Origin: Escherichia coli
GTDB taxonomy: Bacteria > Pseudomonadota > Gammaproteobacteria > Enterobacterales > Enterobacteriaceae
Assembly (NCBI RefSeq): GCF_017348835.2
Contig: NZ_CP071375.1
Strand: one strand, 5' to 3'
DNA length: 64,000 nt
Below, in pieces: positions 14,061-55,065 of the stretch (the first letter of the stretch is position 1; each line of letters opens with the position of its first letter). The notes under the pieces were generated by a model, which saw nothing but the letters and a program-made list of their open reading frames with translations, ran no database searches and was not told where the DNA came from. The translations under genes and the position numbers were made by a program.

Positions 14061-14423
14061 GGGGCTGATTCTGGATTCGACGGGATTTGCGAAACCCAAG
14101 GTGCATGCCGAGGGGCGGTTGGCCTCGTAAAAAGCCGCAAAAAATAGTCGCAAACGACGAAAACTACGCTTTAGCAGCTTAATAACCTGCTTAGAGCCCT
14201 CTCTCCCTAGCCTCCGCTCTTAGGACGGGGATCAAGAGAGGTCAAACCCAAAAGAGATCGCGTGGAAGCCCTGCCTGGGGTTGAAGCGTTAAAACTTAAT
14301 CAGGCTAGTTTGTTAGTGGCGTGTCCGTCCGCAGCTGGCAAGCGAATGTAAAGACTGACTAAGCATGTAGTACCGAGGACGTAGGAATTTCGGACGCGGG
14401 TTCAACTCCCGCCAGCTCCACCA
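14061..14423 (+). ncRNA. ssrA: tmRNA (SsrA), 363 nt, ending in CCA
   Basis: Starts GGGGCTGATTCTGGATTCGACGGG, contains tag-reading-frame region and tRNA-like 3' end GGTTCAACTCCCGCCAGCTCCACCA. Confidence 0.97.
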
Positions 14424-14583: not shown

Positions 14584-17500
14584 TCAGAACGACCAGTTCA
14601 CACCAGCCACCGCGTTCCACGGGGATTCCACATCGGCACCGTTGCTATACCCCACCCCGAGATGCCCGCTTAACGTACTGCTGAATGAGGCTTTAATACC
14701 TGCCTGGTATATTCCACGTCTGCCCGACAAATCATTGACGAAATTACCGTCATTATTCACCTTCACCCGGTTATCATCGACAAATTCTTTGCGCACAGCC
14801 GCCTTCAGCCACGGCTCAACTTCCATACCGTTCCCCAGACGCATGTTGTAACTCAGCGTTGCACCCAGTTCACGATATATACTGCGGGTATCGACTGATT
14901 TCGATTCCATGCCATTGGATAAATGATATTCGGGGTTATCAGCGGTGAACCCCGTTAACGATGCATACGGCGTCAGGTTCCAGTTACCATCAGTAAATCG
15001 CATCCCGGTTTCAATGTGACCGCCCAGCCCGTTGCTGTGGTAACTGCCATTGGCGGCTCCACCGCTGCTCATTTTACCGGCTACGTTACTTTCAAAACGG
15101 TTCAGCTTCACGACACCGTCCAGATAGAAACCACTTTCATGTTCCCAACTGGCATAGCCGCCCAGAGAATAACTGCCCACACTGCCATGTCCTCCGCGAT
15201 CAAAACCGATATGTGAATGGGAATAACCCATAAAAGCGCCCAGCGTCGCAATCCCCTCAGGAATATCATTACGGCTGTCGATCCCCACTGTCATTCCGGT
15301 CAGCGTCTGCTCAAACCCGGCCCCCGCATCGGTGGTGACATTATTACGGGTGTTATACGTCGCCCCCCAGACATTATTGTTGTGTGAACTCGCTTTCATT
15401 ATGTTCAACCGCTCGCGAATACTGTTTAGCTCAGCATCAAATACCAACGGTAATGTTGCTGCCATATTGAGTACGGCTGCGGTAGAAGGCGTGATGCGTT
15501 TCTCCGGAACGGGTGTCGGCGTTGGCTCGGGAGTCGGGTCTGGTTTCGGATCCGGTTTTGGGTCTGGTTTTGGATCCGGCTTCGGATTTGGGTTGGGATT
15601 TGGGTTGGGATCCGGGTTGGGTTTGACATCATTGGTCAGGTTCCAGTTGCTGTTGCCATCGCTTTTCAGGACATACTCATAGGTCCCAAGATCAACGAAA
15701 CCGCCAGTATTGCCCAGCGAAAACGAAGCATCCCCTCCCCCTGTTTTCACCAGCGTCATCGCGTCGTCAGACTGAGGACTGACGCCGGTATCCTGAACAA
15801 AGATTTTAAAATTACCAGTGGCGTTGTTGCTGACGACCAGTTGATCACCGCGGGAGCCAGCAACGTTGGTATGCAGGTAGAAATTACCGCTACCGGAAAG
15901 TTCATTGGTTGTCAGCGTATTGTAGATACCGTTAGTTGTGGCAGGCGCTGCTGTTTGTGCTGATAAATAAACATCACCGTCGTTGAGTAGCAAACTGTTT
16001 ACTCTATATTCGCAGTTGCTGGTACCTGCACAGGAATTATTGCTGTTAAGCCAGACACTGCCCCGGCTGGCAGCCATCAGGTCGGCAAGCGTTGTATCGA
16101 CGCCATTTCCCAGAGTTAATGCCGCGCTATCGGTAATCCGGACCGCCCCTACGAGTTTAACTGGCGTAACATTATCCCGTGGCGTCATTAACGACAGGCT
16201 TCCTGTCGCGCCACTGACCGATGCATCCGCCAGCGTACCTGCGTAGACGATTGCCGTACCGCCAGCGACCTGGAGATCTTCTGCCCGGGCCAGAGCCTGA
16301 AACTCATCTTTTGACCGCCCAAGGGTATATTGCCCGCCAGAGTTAACCTTTGTAGCGGAGTCCTGACCCAGGTTTTGCATTGCACCACCCTTGCCAACCG
16401 TGGAGTAGCGAGCTTCGGTACCTGCTAATACCAATAAATTACCACCATTTTCCAGCAACATATTGGTCGCTAAATTTCCGGCAATGGAAAAGGTGCCGTA
16501 CTGGTGAGTACCGCTGATTTCAATACCGTTAGCTGTGCTCGTCTGGAGAGCGGCACCGCTGTTCTGGACGATATCTGTCGCTTTGCCATTATCATTGACT
16601 GTCAGCGTACCGCCTTCATTTATCGTTGTTTTTATTGCCTCACCGTTAGCCGAAACTGTTTGTATTCCGCCGTCGTTAATCGTTGTCTCATTCGCCACAC
16701 CCTCGACGATTTGTTCGCCGCCGGTGAGCGTCGTGCCTGTCGCAGTGGCTTTTATTTTGACGATCTCCCGTCCGCCCGTATTGACCTGTGTTTTGGCGGA
16801 AGTGGTGTCTGACTCCACGGTTAACACGCCGCCATTTGCCAGCAGGATATTGTTCGCCGCATCCTGCTCGATGCTGAACACGACGCCATCTGCGCGTGTC
16901 CCTGTGACACGCGTCGCCTTGGTGGTTGCAACCAACGCGCCCTGGCTACTCTGCTGTATCCCCGTTGCGCTGCCTTTCTCCCGCACATCGAGTGTGCCGC
17001 CGTCATTAAGCACCGAGTTTTCAGCCAGACCGCCCTCATTAACTACCTGTGAACCGCCATTAATAATGGAACCTTCCGCTGTCCCGTTTGCCATAATTTG
17101 TTGTAGGCCAGAGACGATATCGGTGTTGATTGCCTTACCATAACTCTGAACGGTTTGCGTGCCACCATTGATGTGTGTTTTATCTGTTGACCCACCATCA
17201 ACAATTTGTTCACCACTTTCGAAATTTGCCTCAGTGGCTAAACCATATACCGTTTGCTTGCCACCTTTGATATTTGCTTTATCAGAAGTGGCACTGGCAT
17301 ATATTGTTTGGGTGCCCGCACTATTAAGTACAGTGCCAACATCTTTTCCATAAACATCCATTTTGCCGTTGACATTAATAATCGTATCAACTGCCCGGGA
17401 ACCAGTGACGACTGTTAATGAGCCAGCGTTTTCCAGCACTACATTTTTAGCTTCTGAATTCCTGATGTAGAAAGCATCACCATAACTGTTGGTTCCTTCG

Positions 17501-19170
17501 ATAAGTGTTCCGGAAGTCGTGGAAGCAATTAATGCGCCGCCGGATTGTTGCTCAACATGCTTAGCCTCACCACCGTCCTGAACCTCCAGAACGCCGCCAT
17601 GATTAAGTCTGGTGGTATCTGTTTTGGCCTCCTTCTGGACAATCAGCTTACCGCCAGCATCAATGGTAGTATTTTTCGCCGAGGTTTTAGCCACTACCGT
17701 CAATTCGCCGGTATTTTCCAGCACAACATAATTAGCCTCCCCTCCGGTAATAGTGAAGTGAGAGAGCTTGTTGTATCCTTCGATATCAGTCCCTGCGCCC
17801 GTGTTGGCAACTAAAGCACTGCCCGTCTCCTGGTTAACCCCATGTGCAATACCGCCGGTATAGACAATCAGCGAGCCTCCGGCGCTAATATTGCTGCCAG
17901 TTGCCGTACCATCTTTCTCAACAACCTGGCGGCTCCCAGAGGAGATATTCGTCGTGTCAGCTTTCCCGCCGCTCTTGATATTTTGCGTTCCACTGTTGAT
18001 ATTGGTGCCCGTGGCAATACCATGATTATTAATATTCTGTGTGCCACCATTAATTATGGTATTTGTCGCGTTTCCGGCAACATCCATAACCCCGCCATTA
18101 TCTATTCGGGTAGCATCAGCTTTAGCATTCGTTAAAACTGACATTGTTCCTTTATCTTTAATAATCGTCTTGTTTGCCGAACCATATGCGTTTATGTCTA
18201 AATGACCACCGTGTTCCAGCAACACATTGTCTGCAACGTGATTGTGGATGGAGAATGCCCCTTCACTATTCGTACCGCTCACCGTCGTACCGTTAGTGTT
18301 TGTTTTTAAAATTGCACCATCGTGCTGGGTAACATTTGTTGCCGTACCACCACTAACATCAAGCACGCCACCGGAATAAACTTCAATAACATCCGAGGTG
18401 CTGGTGTTATCAACAATTTGCGTGCCACCAGCATAGATCTGCGTATTTTTTGCCGTTGACTTACTATTCAGAGACTGAGTTCCGCCTTCAATCGTGTTGT
18501 TCAGCGCACGGCTCTCATATACTCTTTGCTCACCGCCATTTTTAATGGTGGTTGTTTCTACTGTGCTCTGTTCAACATACTGTCGACCACCATTTATGGT
18601 TGTGTTCGTTGCCAGACTTCCTTGCGTGATGTCCTGAGAGCCAGACTTATTTATCGTTGTACTGTCGACATGCCCCTGAGTTGTTACTCGTTGGCTGCCA
18701 CCATCAATGATTGTTCCATTCGCAGTCCCCCCACTTATGTGTGAATTACCCCCCTTAATTGTCGTTCCATTGCTGATACCACCTGTATAAACGTCCTGAT
18801 TGCCACTCTCGATTATTGTACCTGTGGAAATACCCCCGTCATGAATTGTCTGTCTGCCCCCGTTAATGGTTGTATTATTAGACTGCCCCACATAATTGTT
18901 ATGCCTTGCTACATCTTGATATCCACCAGATTCAATAAGACTTCCATTAGATATCCCACCATAAACATTCTGCTGGCCATGGTTGATAATATGAGTGTTA
19001 TTTGTTGTACCTCGTTCATCTACTCTTTGGGTGCCATCTACAGTCTCATCGTTTACCACACCAATAACATCAGGAGTGAAGGCCGCCATCCCGGGCGGGG
19101 CATATATCAAGGCAGATATCAATAAGGAAAGTACTGAGCGGCGACAATAATGGGGACTGGTCCTGTTCAT
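14584..19170 (-). CDS. ypjA: Large autotransporter adhesin-like protein (YpjA family): signal peptide, long repetitive passenger, Pro-rich linker, C-terminal beta-barrel
   Basis: ORF 14584-19299; start placed at MNRTSPHYCRRSVLSLLISALIYAPPGMAAF (signal peptide) giving about 1528 aa; passenger built of about 19-aa Gly/Thr/Asn-rich repeats; barrel ends ...NWSF. Confidence 0.85.
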   Translation of the reverse strand: MNRTSPHYCRRSVLSLLISALIYAPPGMAAFTPDVIGVVNDETVDGTQRVDERGTTNNTHIINHGQQNVYGGISNGSLIESGGYQDVARHNNYVGQSNNTTINGGRQTIHDGGISTGTIIESGNQDVYTGGISNGTTIKGGNSHISGGTANGTIIDGGSQRVTTQGHVDSTTINKSGSQDITQGSLATNTTINGGRQYVEQSTVETTTIKNGGEQRVYESRALNNTIEGGTQSLNSKSTAKNTQIYAGGTQIVDNTSTSDVIEVYSGGVLDVSGGTATNVTQHDGAILKTNTNGTTVSGTNSEGAFSIHNHVADNVLLEHGGHLDINAYGSANKTIIKDKGTMSVLTNAKADATRIDNGGVMDVAGNATNTIINGGTQNINNHGIATGTNINSGTQNIKSGGKADTTNISSGSRQVVEKDGTATGSNISAGGSLIVYTGGIAHGVNQETGSALVANTGAGTDIEGYNKLSHFTITGGEANYVVLENTGELTVVAKTSAKNTTIDAGGKLIVQKEAKTDTTRLNHGGVLEVQDGGEAKHVEQQSGGALIASTTSGTLIEGTNSYGDAFYIRNSEAKNVVLENAGSLTVVTGSRAVDTIINVNGKMDVYGKDVGTVLNSAGTQTIYASATSDKANIKGGKQTVYGLATEANFESGEQIVDGGSTDKTHINGGTQTVQSYGKAINTDIVSGLQQIMANGTAEGSIINGGSQVVNEGGLAENSVLNDGGTLDVREKGSATGIQQSSQGALVATTKATRVTGTRADGVVFSIEQDAANNILLANGGVLTVESDTTSAKTQVNTGGREIVKIKATATGTTLTGGEQIVEGVANETTINDGGIQTVSANGEAIKTTINEGGTLTVNDNGKATDIVQNSGAALQTSTANGIEISGTHQYGTFSIAGNLATNMLLENGGNLLVLAGTEARYSTVGKGGAMQNLGQDSATKVNSGGQYTLGRSKDEFQALARAEDLQVAGGTAIVYAGTLADASVSGATGSLSLMTPRDNVTPVKLVGAVRITDSAALTLGNGVDTTLADLMAASRGSVWLNSNNSCAGTSNCEYRVNSLLLNDGDVYLSAQTAAPATTNGIYNTLTTNELSGSGNFYLHTNVAGSRGDQLVVSNNATGNFKIFVQDTGVSPQSDDAMTLVKTGGGDASFSLGNTGGFVDLGTYEYVLKSDGNSNWNLTNDVKPNPDPNPNPNPNPKPDPKPDPKPDPKPDPTPEPTPTPVPEKRITPSTAAVLNMAATLPLVFDAELNSIRERLNIMKASSHNNNVWGATYNTRNNVTTDAGAGFEQTLTGMTVGIDSRNDIPEGIATLGAFMGYSHSHIGFDRGGHGSVGSYSLGGYASWEHESGFYLDGVVKLNRFESNVAGKMSSGGAANGSYHSNGLGGHIETGMRFTDGNWNLTPYASLTGFTADNPEYHLSNGMESKSVDTRSIYRELGATLSYNMRLGNGMEVEPWLKAAVRKEFVDDNRVKVNNDGNFVNDLSGRRGIYQAGIKASFSSTLSGHLGVGYSNGADVESPWNAVAGVNWSF
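15527..15631 (-). repeat. In-frame tandem hexanucleotide repeat tract inside ypjA encoding a (Pro-Asn/Asp/Lys)n linker
   Basis: DNA shows repeating ggatccggttttgggtctggtttt... units; translation PNPDPNPNPNPKPDPKPDPKPDPKPDPTPEPTPTP. Confidence 0.75.
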
Positions 19171-19552
19171 AAATTTCATCCTCTGAAAAGTGAATACTGA
19201 GTAGCGTTTAAGCAACCTTAGCTCTGCTGCAACATCAGCCCACAGGCACCAGACCAGGGGATTCATCCTGAAGAGACAGCGCAAGTGTATTGTGTTCACC
19301 GCTCATCAAAGACATCATGATGAAATGATGATATTCCGCATAAGAATGAGTCATTTTTTAAACGCAGTGCGCTGAAGTGTGGTTGGATAAAAAAGTCAAT
19401 CTATTCAGGAAACACGGGCGTATTCTTTTCTTTCGACATTCAGGCAGTCGGCAAAATAAAATGATTTACATAATCGTTTCTGATGAATATCTTCTGCTCA
19501 CATAAAAATCACACAATAACTTTGATATCGCAGATTGTTTTACTTCTACAGC

Positions 19553-20104: not shown

Positions 20105-21559
20105 TTATACAATAGAACTATTCACAACAGGACTATTCTCAACAGGATCATCCTCAGAGGAACTATCATCAAAGTCATCATCCATAAATAAAATATCATC
20201 GAATGGTGCCACGCCCGTGATTAGTTTTATTTTATTATTACGATCAGACAAGACTCCATTTAAACCGTTTTCGCTGACGGATTTTAATAATTTCTCATAA
20301 CTCTTATTGTCATCAGGCACATTAAAAATACACGGTGCATCAACATCAAACAATGAAGTTCTCCAATTCACATTTTTAATATCATAGTTACGGAAGTTCT
20401 GTCCAGAAAAGAAGCATCCCTTAAAATCCAACCCACCTAAATTATATAAACCACCCTCTCCTTTTTGTAGAGTAATATTAATTCTGGCTATCTCCCGGAC
20501 AAAACTTCCTTTTTTATATTTGAATACCGTTTCAAGATTTTCCCCAGACAGCTTGACTTCTGGGAATAATTTGAAATTAAACCCTACATCATTATTATTC
20601 AAAGTAGATGAACGGAAGATGGAAAAAGCTTGCAGCGCTGAATTATAGCTTTCGATTTTATCTTGAGGCTGCGCTCTTGGTAAAAATATATAGCAGCACT
20701 CATAAAAATTGAATAAACGTTCTGATGAATTTCCATTTTTATCAAATAATATCCCCCGGAACTCCTTCACAAAGGCATCCGTTATTTTTTGAATATCTAT
20801 GGTGTGTTCCTTTGACTCTGACAAAGATGGAGCCTGTTGAAGTGCATTGCTCATCTGGTTAAGGAACATCTGCATTTCTTTCAATTTATCTCCATAGTGG
20901 CCTTTAACTTGCTGAGAGTTTTTAGTTACAGGTGAAACCTTATCTATTTGGTTGTCATATAAATTACGTGGTTCCATAGAGACATTTGGTTGCGTTTCTA
21001 AAATAACACTACGCGTACTACCTGGCTTTAATGAATCAACATGAAACTCACTTTTTCTTATATTGCCGAATAGGGTCTGTTCATCTCTCTTAGCGGATTG
21101 AAAAAAATGATCAACATTATTTTTATTCGATGACAGGTCAGTTTCAGAAACCGCATTTTCTTTGTTCTCCAGCTTTAGTTTAATGAGAAGATCTTCCCAG
21201 ACCTGCTTGCTTAAACATACTACGTCAGGCTCACCATCAGTAACTAACTCTTCATTATTATCAAAGTATACGTTGAATACTTTTAAGTTATTTTCATCAA
21301 CATCATATTTAATACGTTTTAATTGCTCTCCAGATCCCATAATGACAAAGGCGTTGCCTTCATGATATATACATTCAGACATCATTTTTTGTAAAGTTTC
21401 AAGAGCACCGCGATACGTCGCTGAGGCAGCTTCCTTACAAATTAATTTTATAATACTATGAGCTAGTAGCTCCATGGGGTTGGAAGAATTGTTTCCATTA
21501 CAATTCCTGCTAGCAAAAAATGCGCTAGTGTTAAGTTCGTTGCTTTTACTAACTAACAT
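20105..21559 (-). CDS. Hypothetical 484-aa protein of unknown function (probably the YpjC family), low-GC gene with C-terminal pentapeptide-like repeats and acidic tail
   Basis: Long ORF in very AT-rich DNA; residues about 395-430 read LDFKG-CFFSG-QNFRN-YDIKN-VNWRT-SLFDV (x-D/N-hydrophobic-x-x periodicity); C-terminus DDDFDDSSSEDDPVENS; no signal peptide or TM evident. Confidence 0.6.
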   Translation of the reverse strand: MLVSKSNELNTSAFFASRNCNGNNSSNPMELLAHSIIKLICKEAASATYRGALETLQKMMSECIYHEGNAFVIMGSGEQLKRIKYDVDENNLKVFNVYFDNNEELVTDGEPDVVCLSKQVWEDLLIKLKLENKENAVSETDLSSNKNNVDHFFQSAKRDEQTLFGNIRKSEFHVDSLKPGSTRSVILETQPNVSMEPRNLYDNQIDKVSPVTKNSQQVKGHYGDKLKEMQMFLNQMSNALQQAPSLSESKEHTIDIQKITDAFVKEFRGILFDKNGNSSERLFNFYECCYIFLPRAQPQDKIESYNSALQAFSIFRSSTLNNNDVGFNFKLFPEVKLSGENLETVFKYKKGSFVREIARINITLQKGEGGLYNLGGLDFKGCFFSGQNFRNYDIKNVNWRTSLFDVDAPCIFNVPDDNKSYEKLLKSVSENGLNGVLSDRNNKIKLITGVAPFDDILFMDDDFDDSSSEDDPVENSPVVNSSIV

Positions 21560-22308: not shown

Positions 22309-22384
22309 TTGGTGGCCCTTGCTGGACTTGAACCAGCGACCAGGCGATTATGAGTCGCCTGCTCTAACCACTGAGCTAAAGGGC
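22309..22384 (-). tRNA. ileY: tRNA-Ile (anticodon CAU, lysidine-modified, AUA-reading)
   Basis: Minus strand reads GGCCCTTTAGCTCAGTGG...CGACTCATAATCG...GGTTCAAGTCCAGCAAGGGCCACCA; cloverleaf with CAT anticodon. Confidence 0.92.
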
Positions 22385-22944
22385 CTTGAGTGTGCAATAA
22401 CAATACTTATAAACCACGCAATAAACATGATGATCATATGATGTAAATAACAGATTTTTATGCGTTCTCATTCATCCTTGCTCGTCATTACACGCGACAT
22501 AAAACCCGACACCGCCTCTATTCGCAAAGTCGATACTCGCAGTCAACAAGCAAATGTTAATAATTAACACTATCTATAGTTATCATCGATTCAATGATAC
22601 TTTGTAATGATTTTGTATCTAATAATATAACTTTATTACATTAGCTGAAGAGTTTTCGCATCATTATGATATCTGTTACTTTTCACGCCATAAAAATAAA
22701 CTTCATATAGCAATATATTCTTTCATAGATCTTATTCTGCTAATCATTAGTTTCGTATGAGCGATTTTTGACAGTTGCCTCTCCAGACCACATCGATAAT
22801 TAAAAAAACAGATTTAAGCATTATCCTTTTCCATATAAATATTGGATAAAAGTAGGACATCTGTTTGCAATTACTTTCACAACAATTAAACATTTTTATG
22901 TTTCCATATACACCATATTACTCTACCATTAGAGGAACTTTATT

Positions 22945-43678: not shown

Positions 43679-44671
43679 ATGCGACATAGCGTACTTTTTG
43701 CGACAGCGTTTGCCACGCTTATCTCTACACAAACTTTTGCTGCCGATCTGCCGGGCAAAGGCATTACTGTTAATCCAGTTCAAAGCACCATCACCGAAGA
43801 AACCTTCCAGACACTGCTGGTCAGTCGTGCGCTGGAGAAATTAGGTTATACCGTCAATAAACCCAGCGAAGTGGATTACAACGTTGGCTACACCTCGCTT
43901 GCTTCCGGCGATGCAACCTTCACCGCCGTGAACTGGACGCCACTGCATGACAACATGTACGAAGCTGCCGGTGGCGATAAGAAATTTTATCGTGAAGGGG
44001 TATTTGTTAACGGCGCGGCACAGGGTTACCTGATCGATAAGAAAACCGCCGACCAGTACAAAATCACCAACATCGCACAACTAAAAGATCCGAAGATCGC
44101 CAAACTGTTCGATACCAACGGCGACGGTAAAGCGGATTTGACTGGCTGTAACCCTGGCTGGGGCTGCGAAGGTGCGATCAACCACCAGCTTGCCGCGTAT
44201 GAACTGACCAATACCGTGACGCATAATCAGGGGAACTACGCGGCGATGATGGCTGACACCATCAGTCGCTACAAAGAGGGCAAACCGGTGTTTTACTACA
44301 CCTGGACGCCGTACTGGGTGAGTAATGAGCTGAAGCCAGGGAAAGATGTGGTCTGGTTGCAGGTGCCGTTCTCTGCACTGCCGGGCGATAAAAATGCCGA
44401 TACCAAACTGCCGAATGGCGCGAATTACGGCTTCCCGGTCAGCACCATGCATATCGTTGCCAATAAAGCCTGGGCCGAGAAAAACCCGGCAGCAGCGAAA
44501 CTGTTTGCCATTATGCAGTTGCCAGTGGCAGATATTAACGCCCAGAACGCCATTATGCATGACGGCAAAGCCTCAGAAGGCGATATTCAGGGCCATGTTG
44601 ATGGCTGGATCAAAGCCCACCAGCAGCAGTTCGATGGCTGGGTGAATGAGGCGTTGGCAGCGCAGAAGTAA
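43679..44671 (+). CDS. proX: Glycine betaine-binding periplasmic protein ProX
   Basis: Start at [21 protein letters not shown] (signal peptide; 330 aa) inside ORF 43631-44671. Confidence 0.95.
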
Positions 44672-44677
44672 TTTTTA

Positions 44678-44755
<78 letters not shown>

Positions 44756-44862
44756 GCCTACAAACCACACCGCACATTTCAACAATCTATCTTTCATCCC
44801 ATATTCATCAACATCCGCTATTATTGATTTCCAGCTTAATCATCACCTGATGAACAAAAATA

Positions 44863-46047
44863 ATGACCAAACCTAATCATGAGCTTAGCCCGGCGCTAAT
44901 CGTGCTGATGTCTATCGCCACCGGTCTGGCGGTCGCCAGCAACTATTACGCCCAGCTATTGCTCGACACCATCGCGCGTAACTTTTCCCTTTCCGCCAGT
45001 TCGGCAGGCTTTATTGTTACCGCCGCGCAGTTGGGCTATGCCGCCGGTCTGCTGTTTCTTGTTCCCCTCGGTGATATGTTTGAACGCCGCCGCCTGATTG
45101 TCTCGATGACCTTACTGGCGGCATGCGGCATGTTGATTACCGCCAGCAGTCAGTCGCTGGCGATGATGATCCTCGGTACGGCATTAACCGGTTTATTCTC
45201 AGTCGTGGCACAAATTCTGGTTCCACTGGCAGCGACGCTGGCTTCACCGGACAAACGCGGCAAAGTGGTTGGCACCATTATGAGCGGTCTGCTGTTGGGG
45301 ATCTTGCTGGCACGAACCGTTGCCGGGTTACTGGCAAACCTCGGCGGCTGGCGCACCGTCTTTTGGGTTGCCTCGGTGTTAATGGCACTGATGGCGCTGG
45401 CATTATGGCGTGGTCTGCCACAAATGAAATCAGAAACCCACCTCAATTACCCACAGTTGTTGGGTTCCGTTTTCAGTATGTTTATCAGCAATAAGATCCT
45501 GCGCACCCGCGCGTTGCTGGGCTGCCTGACCTTTGCCAACTTCAGCATTCTCTGGACCTCAATGGCCTTTTTGCTTGCCGCTCCACCTTTTAACTACAGC
45601 GATGGTGTCATTGGTCTGTTTGGACTTGCGGGAGCTGCCGGAGCGTTGGGCGCTCGTCCAGCGGGCGGTTTTGCCGACAAGGGCAAATCGCACCACACAA
45701 CAACTTTCGGTCTGCTTCTGCTGTTACTTTCATGGCTGGCAATCTGGTTTGGTCACACTTCCGTACTGGCGTTGATTATCGGCATTCTGGTGCTGGACCT
45801 CACCGTACAGGGCGTGCATATCACTAACCAGACGGTAATTTATCGAATACATCCTGATGCGCGTAATCGCCTGACCGCAGGTTACATGACCAGCTACTTT
45901 ATTGGCGGTGCCGCCGGTTCGCTAATTTCAGCCTCAGCCTGGCAACATGGCGGTTGGGCTGGCGTTTGTCTGGCTGGCGCGACGATTGCCCTGGTTAACT
46001 TACTGGTCTGGTGGCGAGGTTTTCATCGTCAGGAAGCCGCAAATTAA
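44863..46047 (+). CDS. ygaY: MFS transporter YgaY (intact 394-aa reading frame)
   Basis: 12-TM MFS-like hydrophobic profile; position between proX and ygaZ. Confidence 0.8.
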   Translation: MTKPNHELSPALIVLMSIATGLAVASNYYAQLLLDTIARNFSLSASSAGFIVTAAQLGYAAGLLFLVPLGDMFERRRLIVSMTLLAACGMLITASSQSLAMMILGTALTGLFSVVAQILVPLAATLASPDKRGKVVGTIMSGLLLGILLARTVAGLLANLGGWRTVFWVASVLMALMALALWRGLPQMKSETHLNYPQLLGSVFSMFISNKILRTRALLGCLTFANFSILWTSMAFLLAAPPFNYSDGVIGLFGLAGAAGALGARPAGGFADKGKSHHTTTFGLLLLLLSWLAIWFGHTSVLALIIGILVLDLTVQGVHITNQTVIYRIHPDARNRLTAGYMTSYFIGGAAGSLISASAWQHGGWAGVCLAGATIALVNLLVWWRGFHRQEAAN

Positions 46048-46170
46048 GCAATCAGCAACCGTTTTCGTGGCTTTACACTTATAAGGGTGTTAAGAAGCCC
46101 ATCAGTCTGATAAGGTTAAGATATTCATTCAGTCTATTTATAATATTAACAATCGTTAAGCGTACACTCT

Positions 46171-46908
46171 ATGGAAAGCCCTACTCCACAGCCTGCTCCT
46201 GGTTCGGCGACCTTCATGGAAGGATGCAAAGACAGTTTACCGATTGTTATTAGTTATATTCCGGTGGCCTTTGCGTTCGGTCTGAATGCGACCCGTCTGG
46301 GATTCTCTCCTCTCGAAAGCGTTTTTTTCTCCTGCATCATTTATGCAGGCGCGAGCCAGTTCGTCATTACCGCGATGCTGGCAGCCGGGAGTAGTTTGTG
46401 GGTTGCTGCACTGACCGTCATGGCAATGGATGTTCGCCATGTGTTGTATGGCCCGTCACTGCGTAGCCGTATTATTCAGCGTCTGCAAAAATCGAAAACC
46501 GCCCTGTGGGCGTTTGGCCTGACGGATGAGGTTTTTGCCGCCGCAACCGCAAAACTGGTACGCAATAATCGCCGCTGGAGCGAGAACTGGATGATCGGCA
46601 TTGCCTTCAGTTCATGGTCATCGTGGGTATTTGGTACGGTAATAGGGGCATTCTCCGGCAGCGGCTTGCTGCAAGGTTATCCCGCCGTTGAAGCAGCATT
46701 AGGTTTTATGCTTCCGGCACTCTTTATGAGTTTCCTGCTCGCCTCTTTCCAGCGCAAACAATCTCTTTGCGTTACCGCAGCGTTAGTTGGTGCCCTTGCA
46801 GGCGTAACGCTATTTTCTATTCCCGTCGCCATTCTGGCAGGCATTGTCTGTGGCTGCCTCACTGCGTTAATCCAGGCATTCTGGCAAGGAGCGCCCGATG
46901 AGCTATGA
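46171..46908 (+). CDS. ygaZ: L-valine exporter subunit YgaZ (AzlC family)
   Basis: 245 aa polytopic membrane protein; 11-bp overlap with ygaH. Confidence 0.88.
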
Positions 46909-47233
46909 GGTTCTGCTGCTTGGGTTACTGGTTGGCGCGGCGAATTATTGCTTCCGCTATTTGCCGCTGCGCCTGCGTGTGGGTAATGCCCGCCCAACCA
47001 AACGTGGCGCGGTAGGTATTTTGCTCGACACCATTGGCATCGCCTCGATATGCGCTCTGCTGGTTGTCTCTACCGCACCAGAAGTGATGCACGATACACG
47101 CCGTTTCGTGCCCACGCTGGTCGGCTTCGCGGTACTGGGTGCCAGTTTCTATAAAACACGCAGCATTATCATCCCAACACTGCTTAGTGCGCTGGCCTAT
47201 GGGCTCGCCTGGAAAGTGATGGCGATTATATAA
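46898..47233 (+). CDS. ygaH: L-valine exporter subunit YgaH (AzlD family)
   Basis: 111-aa small membrane protein translationally coupled to ygaZ. Confidence 0.88.
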
Positions 47234-51355: not shown

Positions 51356-51433
51356 GAAAGACGCGCATTTGTTATCATCATCCCTGAATTCAGAGATGAA
51401 ATTTTGGCCACTCACGAGTGGCCTTTTTCTTTT
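51356..51433 (+). ncRNA. micA: MicA (SraD) small regulatory RNA
   Basis: GAAAGACGCGCATTTGTTATCATCATCCCTGAATTCAGAGATGAAATTTTGGCCACTCACGAGTGGCCTTTTTCTTTT in the luxS-gshA intergenic region; terminator hairpin plus U-tract. Confidence 0.82.
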
Positions 51434-54337: not shown

Positions 54338-54414
54338 TGGTGCATCCGGGAGGATTCGAACCTCCGACCGCTCGGTTCGTAGCCGAGTACTCTATCCAGC
54401 TGAGCTACGGATGC
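54338..54414 (-). tRNA. argQ: tRNA-Arg (anticodon ACG)
   Basis: Reverse complement GCATCCGTAGCTCAGCTGGATAGAGTACTCGGCTACGAACCGAGCGGTCGGAGGTTCGAATCCTCCCGGATGCACCA. Confidence 0.93.
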
Positions 54415-54475
54415 ATCGGGAAAATTTATTTTACTGCTGATATTGATATCGCTACTAAAGCCATATCAAGTAAGA

Positions 54476-54612
54476 GATGGTGCACCAGGGAGGATTACTC
54501 GCCTTGCGGCTCGCCCTTCGGGCCGTTGCTGGCGCAACGTTATCCTCCCTGGTGCCTGCGGTTAATTCCGCTACCTCTTCGATATCTTCATTGCTGAAGA
54601 TTTCGGAGAATA
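54476..54612 (-). repeat. About 135-bp tRNA-linked repeat (copy 2) between argZ and argQ
   Basis: TGGTGCACCAGGGAGGAT ... ATCCTCCCTGGTGC perfect 13-bp inverted repeat enclosing about 45 nt; shares the 3' 60 bp with copy 1. Confidence 0.6.
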
Positions 54613-54689
54613 TGGTGCATCCGGGAGGATTCGAACCTCCGACCGCTCGGTTCGTAGCCGAGTACTCTATCCAGCTGAGCTACGGATGC
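54613..54689 (-). tRNA. argZ: tRNA-Arg (anticodon ACG)
   Basis: Sequence identical to argQ copy. Confidence 0.93.
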
Positions 54690-54751
54690 ATCGGGAAATT
54701 AATTTTACTGCTGATATTGATACCGCTACTAAAGCCATATCAAGTAAGAGA

Positions 54752-54828
54752 TGGTGCATCCGGGAGGATTCGAACCTCCGACCGCTCGGTTCGTAGCCGA
54801 GTACTCTATCCAGCTGAGCTACGGATGC
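54752..54828 (-). tRNA. argY: tRNA-Arg (anticodon ACG)
   Basis: Sequence identical to argQ copy. Confidence 0.93.
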
Positions 54829-54892
54829 ATCGGGAAACTTACTTTACTGCATATTTTTTGATACCGCTACTAAAGCCGTATCAAGTAAGAGA

Positions 54893-54969
54893 TGGTGCAT
54901 CCGGGAGGATTCGAACCTCCGACCGCTCGGTTCGTAGCCGAGTACTCTATCCAGCTGAGCTACGGATGC
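54893..54969 (-). tRNA. argV: tRNA-Arg (anticodon ACG)
   Basis: Sequence identical to argQ copy. Confidence 0.93.
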
Positions 54970-54972
54970 AAA

Positions 54973-55065
54973 TGGCGGTGAGGCGGGGATTCGAACCCCG
55001 GATGCAGCTTTTGACCGCATACTCCCTTAGCAGGGGAGCGCCTTCAGCCTCTCGGCCACCTCACC
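54973..55065 (-). tRNA. serV: tRNA-Ser (anticodon GCU), long variable arm
   Basis: Reverse complement GGTGAGGTGGCCGAGAGGCTGAAGGCGCTCCCCTGCTAAGGGAGTATGCGGTCAAAAGCTGCATCCGGGGTTCGAATCCCCGCCTCACCGCCA. Confidence 0.93.

Follow-up and report, generated by a model that had tools for sequence, protein, structure and literature searches.

An intact ygaY allele of Escherichia coli encoding a predicted YnfM-family transporter, and the nature of the K-12 ygaY lesion

Gene organization of the ygaY locus

The ygaY gene was analyzed in a 64,000-nucleotide stretch of the E. coli contig NZ_CP071375.1 (assembly GCF_017348835.2), hereafter called the window, with positions counted from its first letter. The genes proW and proX lay upstream of ygaY, and ygaZ, ygaH, mprA (emrR) and emrA followed downstream. 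The features of the locus were as follows.

43679 to 44671, + strand: proX, the upstream neighbour at the end of proVWX (PGAP map of the identical locus, open reading frame)
44681 to 44758, + strand: REP/BIME-type element in the 191-bp proX–ygaY spacer (Rfam naRNA4, RF02564, 76.4 bits versus 59.5)
44863 to 46047, + strand: ygaY coding sequence, intact, 12-TM MFS transporter of the YnfM family, TCDB 2.A.1.36.3 (open reading frame, PGAP, Pfam, AlphaFold2, Foldseek)
44956 to 44958, + strand: codon 32, CTA (Leu), the P32L substitution in the Y-Y-x-Q-P-L-L motif where TM1 ends on the periplasmic side (SNP-centred 41-mer, alignments, HMM)
45118 to 45131, + strand: perfect 7-bp tandem duplication of GCGGCAT in codons 86 to 90, A-A-C-G-M (alignments with K-12 and with multiple alleles)
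45124 to 45126, + strand: codon 88, TGC (Cys), the G88C change that completes the perfect repeat (C88 against G88 across alleles)
46116 to 46144, + strand: sigma70-like site TTAAGA-17-TATAAT with 10 of 12 matches, directly upstream of ygaZ (promoter scan)
46171 to 46908, + strand: ygaZ, L-valine exporter subunit (open reading frame, PGAP)
46898 to 47233, + strand: ygaH, L-valine exporter subunit (open reading frame, PGAP)

The ygaY frame started with ATG and ran through 394 codons to a TAA stop without any internal stop. At the same coordinates, an intact "MFS transporter" (WP_096220543.1) was annotated by PGAP in PE164 and F2_81, two pig isolates whose ygaY was identical to that of the window; PE164 matched at 100% over a 1,499-bp query. 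The window ygaY is a real gene, and a chance reading frame is ruled out. A preliminary description of this DNA had reported a continuous 394-codon MFS-like frame with ygaZ and ygaH as neighbours, and both points were borne out, the former by the reading frame, PGAP and the Pfam family MFS_1, the latter by the window reading frames and the PGAP map. A 123-aa out-of-frame reading frame inside ygaY (45123 to 45494, + strand), together with overlapping antisense ones, was taken as a chance product of a GC-rich gene.

The proX–ygaY spacer contained an inverted repeat (I2, 44682 to 44711) within the REP/BIME element. Because of this element, a query including the spacer matched many places in each genome (median, 9). 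The spacer also varied in length: it was 100 bp longer in CH4790, and its first 98 or so nucleotides were unmatched in some genomes. In the promoter scan, the totals did not exceed those expected from shuffling, and no sigma70-like site turned up upstream of ygaY. No terminator-like structure was found between ygaY and ygaZ. Studies of this region in K-12 have concerned only its H-NS-mediated bridging to the downstream regulatory element of proVWX, and ygaY was there termed "cryptic" (bioRxiv 10.1101/2023.07.10.548347).

Several further features were observed elsewhere in the window. The tmRNA gene ssrA (14061 to 14423, + strand) was followed at once by a reading frame for a 1571-aa AIDA/pertactin-type autotransporter (14584 to 19299, − strand), and only about 27 kb separated ssrA from proV. 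K-12 carries a prophage at ssrA; the spacing suggests that this prophage is absent or different in the window. Moreover, a 484-aa protein with DUF5507 and DUF5508 was encoded at 20105 to 21559 (− strand); it matched CTD4 of ABC-three-component (ABC-3C) systems below the threshold, and a tRNA gene adjoined it (22313 to 22385, − strand). The two may form a small accessory or defence-related island. The MicA sRNA (51356 to 51427, + strand) and a five-tRNA cluster (54341 to 55065, − strand), four of whose five members scored identically, were ordinary content for the region.

Family assignment and predicted structure

YgaY matched the Pfam family PF07690 (MFS_1) with 139.2 bits against a cutoff of 33.4 and an E value of 2e-40. 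Its hydropathy profile displayed 11 strong hydrophobic segments and one weaker segment, with cytoplasmic loops rich in Lys and Arg in accordance with the positive-inside rule. The AlphaFold2 model, for which an alignment of 110 diverse sequences was used as input, was all-helical and had a mean pLDDT of 95.3 and a pTM of 0.93, with a 12-helix MFS fold. A sequence search of the PDB returned only weak partial matches (GlcP, EmrD, Qdr2), and a fold search was therefore needed. Against the PDB, Foldseek placed SotB, MdfA and NorA as the best matches, with TM-scores of 0.81 to 0.84. Hydropathy, the model and the TM-score of 0.84 to SotB and MdfA agreed on a twelve-TM MFS protein, and the MFS topology of the window gene was undisrupted, as the preliminary description would have it.

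The conserved motifs were consistent with this assignment. In the TM2–TM3 loop, motif A was present as P68-L-G70-D71-M-F-E-R-R-R77, a shortened variant of the canonical G-x-x-x-D/E-R/K-x-G-R-R/K, in which P68 was invariant and G70 and D71 were conserved at 92–97%. An echo of the motif occurred in the TM8–TM9 loop (G268-G-F-A-D272-K-G-K; G268 at 99% and D272 at 92%). In addition, a membrane-embedded Arg in TM5, R151, was near-invariant (98%) and aligned with an Arg of YnfM.

In TCDB, entry 2.A.1.36.3 is E. coli YgaY (P76628) itself, placed in the "acriflavin-sensitivity (YnfM)" family with the substrate "Unknown" (PMC5417439). Membership of this family was confirmed by BLASTP, which aligned residues 1–390 of YgaY with residues 20–414 of E. 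coli YnfM at 25% identity (E value 1e-18). No NCBIfam model scored YgaY above its own cutoff, and therefore no equivalog-level name could be given. Among these models, Cmx scored far under its cutoff, and the DHA1 models also stayed below theirs (TIGR00710 Bcr/CflA, 49 bits against 200.9; EmrD, 36 against 479). Antiporter motif C (G-x8-G-x3-G-P-x2-G-G) was sought in TM5, where YgaY reads G137-TIMS-G142-LLL-G146-ILLA-R151-TVA-G155 and lacks the G-P of the motif, so that YgaY was not assigned to DHA1 (TCDB 2.A.1.2). The predicted structure nevertheless supports the view that YgaY would resemble DHA1 exporters in its working, though it lies outside that family.

The 7-bp lesion of K-12 ygaY

In K-12 MG1655 (NC_000913.3), ygaY (b2681) is listed as a pseudogene, and the annotation of NZ_CP009685.1 marks it as "frameshifted". 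The preliminary description had named K-12 ygaY a pseudogene, and this was correct. Global alignment of the window gene with K-12 gave 36 substitutions and one 7-bp gap at window positions 45118–45124; the same intact frame was thus absent from K-12. At this site, the window reads CTG, two GCGGCAT units in tandem and then GTTG, while K-12 keeps a single unit. With one unit, the K-12 frame shifts after codon 87 and meets a stop directly following codon 88. The K-12 type of pseudogene was not found in the window, in which both units stand at 45118–45131 and the frame stays open to 46047.

The repeat itself was restricted to one haplotype. In an alignment of nine alleles, most lineages carried GCAGCGGGCGGTAT (A-A-G-G-M) at the repeat site, without a repeat, and the window, PE164 and the progenitor of K-12 carried GCGGCATGCGGCAT (A-A-C-G-M). 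The change of Gly88 to Cys, together with synonymous changes, produced the perfect 7-bp duplication. Column 88 held V, L, A, I or G in distant homologs, and C was found in 11 of 120 close homologs. Since this column varies across the family, Cys88 is probably tolerated.

The frequency of each state among 5426 complete E. coli genomes was determined with short probes. The K-12 junction 43-mer, designed so that it could not seed on the two-unit allele, was found in 353 genomes. These were judged from 40 rows evenly spaced down the ranking, and all 40 sampled genomes were K-12 or laboratory derivatives (MG1655, W3110, DH1, BW2952, C600, TG1, MC4100, J53 transconjugants and O16:H48 strains). The exact 43-mer of the two-unit G88C haplotype occurred in 684 genomes. 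By megablast, the two-unit 43-mer gave 789 genomes; the shortfall reflected neighbouring SNPs that break the 28-mer seed and not deletions in the other genomes, and blastn was used instead. A band of 2550 genomes at 80–90% identity was considered as a mass of K-12-type deletions and rejected, for these were mostly ungapped 43-bp matches with 5–7 SNPs, that is, the GCAGCGGGCGGTAT haplotype. In the blastn junction probe, only 36-bp spans represented deletions, and the sequences of six representatives agreed with this.

When the missing 7 bp were restored, K-12 ygaY agreed at 1185 of 1185 positions with the gene carried by many wild strains of human, pig, dog, cattle and water origin. This identity indicates that the K-12 lesion arose once, recently, on an allele that is common in the wild. 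The repaired K-12 frame differed from the window protein at only two residues (L32P and N210D). The following course of events can be proposed. The change from Gly88 to Cys on one haplotype would have yielded two GCGGCAT units in tandem, and replication slippage would then have removed one of them in the K-12 lineage, shifting the frame into the stop after codon 88. The window would represent the repeat haplotype as it stood before slippage, with both units kept. Slippage would be the obvious mechanism for a 7-bp loss at such a repeat.

Distribution and conservation

Query coverage for the gene reached 80% or more in 5413 of the 5426 complete E. coli genomes. Six comparison alleles, chosen to represent all identity classes of the junction probe (O157:H7, 55989, HB37, O139:H1, AST215 and M114), each encoded a ygaY product of 394 aa annotated as an ordinary, non-pseudo CDS. 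Read from these six translated representatives and the coverage counts, intact ygaY appears to be the norm of the species and K-12 the exception, although rare sporadic lesions may occur in other genomes. The dN/dS between the window gene and the six alleles plus the repaired K-12 frame was 0.02–0.065, with dS up to 0.17, and such values are indicative of strong purifying selection on ygaY. An apparent length variant in CH4790 (H23) was set aside, the extra 100 bp falling in the proX–ygaY spacer outside the gene.

Beyond the species, a search of 5.8 billion proteins returned 7,786 YgaY homologs at E values of 1e-20 or lower. Orthologs were 97–99% identical across Escherichia and Shigella, and full-length orthologs at 92–93% identity were present in Citrobacter and Salmonella. 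One homolog, a 596-aa protein from an ENA metagenome contig (P0001, 72% identity, 1079 bits), had residues of about 104–300 duplicated internally, which reflects either faulty assembly or a tandem duplication inside the gene.

The P32L substitution

Leu32 was the only residue that set the window YgaY apart from all seven other alleles (six wild ones and the repaired K-12 frame). The SNP-centred 41-mer was found in two of the 5426 genomes, the pig isolates PE164 (China) and F2_81 (Australia). All 120 close homologs had Pro at position 32, as did 112 of the 119 representatives at 36–59% identity; the others showed A, S or T or a gap there, and Leu in no case. In the 110-sequence alignment, column 32 belonged to the 31 columns with at least 90% conservation, beside the single invariant P68. 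Over the 40 most conserved columns, the window deviated at position 32 only. When the window protein was left out of the family HMM, P32L cost 7.5 bits and ranked third among 327 possible changes to Leu, and Leu tied for the worst residue at this position. Furthermore, the paralog YnfM (25% identity) shares the motif at the end of TM1 as YCVQPIL.

In the AlphaFold2 model, residue 32 lay at a break between the short helices H29–32 and H34–40. AlphaFold is insensitive to single substitutions, and so a good model is silent on the effect of P32L. The substitution is rare and falls on a near-invariant proline, and for this reason "functional" is less secure than "intact" as a description of the window YgaY. 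Judging from conservation, the activity of this copy may be reduced or altered by P32L; a materially deleterious effect would be the less probable outcome, though one to be reckoned with. The preliminary description had suggested that this strain might retain a functional transporter. The intact frame spoke for that suggestion, while the unusualness it implied did not hold, the intact gene being the norm and K-12 the exception.

Predicted transport mechanism and substrate

YgaY would be a secondary transporter driven by the proton-motive force and working by rocker-switch alternating access; by analogy, this is the mechanism best supported by the fold, by motif A in both halves and by the exporter relatives. 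Since the nearest structures (SotB, MdfA and NorA) and YnfM are exporters, the direction would be export, most likely of a small organic solute. R151 would fit an anionic substrate.

For YnfM of E. coli and Corynebacterium, glutarate export in a CCCP-sensitive manner has been reported (PMC12622518), and the sensitivity to CCCP means that efflux is driven by the proton-motive force. In addition, intracellular arabinose rose upon deletion of ynfM (PMC3429515), and a YnfM homolog of Salmonella was claimed to be a Cu importer (PMC13101709). Given the 25% identity and this broad substrate range in the YnfM family, a substrate cannot be transferred to YgaY. In the E. coli papers examined, no function, substrate or direction was reported for ygaY, which appeared in K-12 as a pseudogene, a neutral control or an integration locus. 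The genomic context gave no clue to the substrate either: the three homologs examined at 50–57% identity had no recurring neighbour and no AzlC/AzlD.

Evaluation of alternative explanations

It is highly probable that the window ygaY is an ordinary intact E. coli allele of a 12-helix YnfM-family MFS transporter and that the K-12 pseudogene is a lineage-specific accident. A contrary reading, in which ygaY is decaying and dispensable across E. coli and the K-12 frameshift is one case of widespread erosion, could draw on the normal growth of K-12 without the gene, on the use of the locus as a neutral integration site and control, and on the lack of an assigned function. It is nonetheless very improbable in view of the low dN/dS at considerable dS, the intact state of all six diverse wild alleles, the full-length orthologs in Citrobacter and Salmonella, the limitation of the junction to K-12-type genomes among those sampled, and the fact that the 7 bp are the sole change of the K-12 gene relative to wild alleles. 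It has also been considered that YgaY partners the YgaZH valine exporter in an operon and shares its branched-chain amino acid substrate class. The genes lie on the same strand, the 123-bp gap from ygaY to ygaZ contains no terminator-like structure, Citrobacter shares the gene order, and one paper names a "yga operon" (bioRxiv 10.1101/2023.07.10.548347); however, the strong sigma70-like site (10 of 12) stands right before ygaZ, AzlC/AzlD neighbours are absent from the homologs at 50–57% identity, and K-12 ygaZ and ygaH are annotated as intact despite the frameshifted ygaY. We consider such a partnership improbable. The order proVWX-ygaY-ygaZH-mprA-emrAB was kept in Citrobacter, and as the homologs at 50–57% identity lacked AzlC/AzlD, the adjacency of ygaY and ygaZH looks like enterobacterial synteny, a property of the lineage, rather than conserved functional coupling.

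The remaining alternative concerns the window copy itself, which might be in frame and yet impaired, P32L being a missense null or hypomorph and a second, independent route of loss in a pig-associated lineage. The confinement of L32 to two of 5426 genomes, both from pigs, would agree with this, as would Pro32 in 120 of 120 close and 112 of 119 distant homologs, the single deviation among the 40 most conserved columns at a column conserved at 90% or more, the cost of 7.5 bits (rank 3 of 327), the Q-P motif shared with YnfM, and the tolerance of E. coli for the loss of ygaY demonstrated by K-12. However, conservation is no functional assay; A, S or T occupied column 32 in 5 of the 119 distant homologs, and Pro is therefore no absolute requirement; the rest of the window YgaY was consensus-like, without a further rare change; and the L32 allele has persisted in no fewer than two isolates of independent origin, one Chinese and one Australian. 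An impaired copy is therefore a possibility of some substance, though not the reading that we favour. A wider form of this idea holds that, within part of the species, ygaY can be dispensed with under some conditions and is fragile towards mutation, through repeat slippage in K-12 and P32L in the pig lineage. This is rather unlikely; the holders of the G88C repeat haplotype comprise 684 wild genomes (exact matches) and 353 K-12-type descendants. If it were true, the window would show an early, frame-intact stage in the loss of a conserved transporter.

With the window ygaY read as an ordinary intact allele, part of the present result was already known: the pseudogene status in K-12 is found in the reference annotation, and the intact gene in RefSeq for six other genomes. 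Its interest is low because nearly every E. coli has an intact ygaY that RefSeq has already annotated. The additions made here are small and consist of the nature and origin of the K-12 lesion, with a haplotype-specific repeat that the window keeps, and the rare P32L substitution. That the function of YgaY has received no study is probably due to K-12, the model strain, being a natural null. For gain-of-function tests, K-12 offers a clean background in which any wild P32 allele can be expressed. Owing to P32L, the present strain is a poor source of a "functional" YgaY.

Comparison with known transporters

The gene of K-12 (b2681; P76628; 2.A.1.36.3) occupies the same locus as that of the window, between proX and ygaZ. 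It has lost one GCGGCAT unit and is frameshifted, whereas the window gene retains the second unit, its frame is open, and residue 32 is Leu instead of the consensus Pro of K-12. The YgaY proteins of wild E. coli and Shigella, such as WP_000165714.1 of O157:H7 and WP_000165676.1 of 55989, were also 394 aa long, 98–99.5% identical to the window protein and flanked by the same neighbours. They possessed P32 and mostly G88, in contrast to L32 and C88 in the window.

YnfM (b1596), which gave its name to TCDB 2.A.1.36, resembled YgaY in its 12 TM segments, full-length homology, Y-x-x-Q-P at the end of TM1 and the Arg of TM5. It differed in sequence, with an identity of 25%, and in location, being encoded at another locus beside the LysR regulator gene ynfL. 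Compared with the transporters of solved structure, SotB (6kkk), MdfA (4zp0) and NorA (8ttf), YgaY had the same 12-TM MFS fold with an rmsd of 2.5–4.0 Å over about 380–390 columns, while the sequence identity was only 15–17%.
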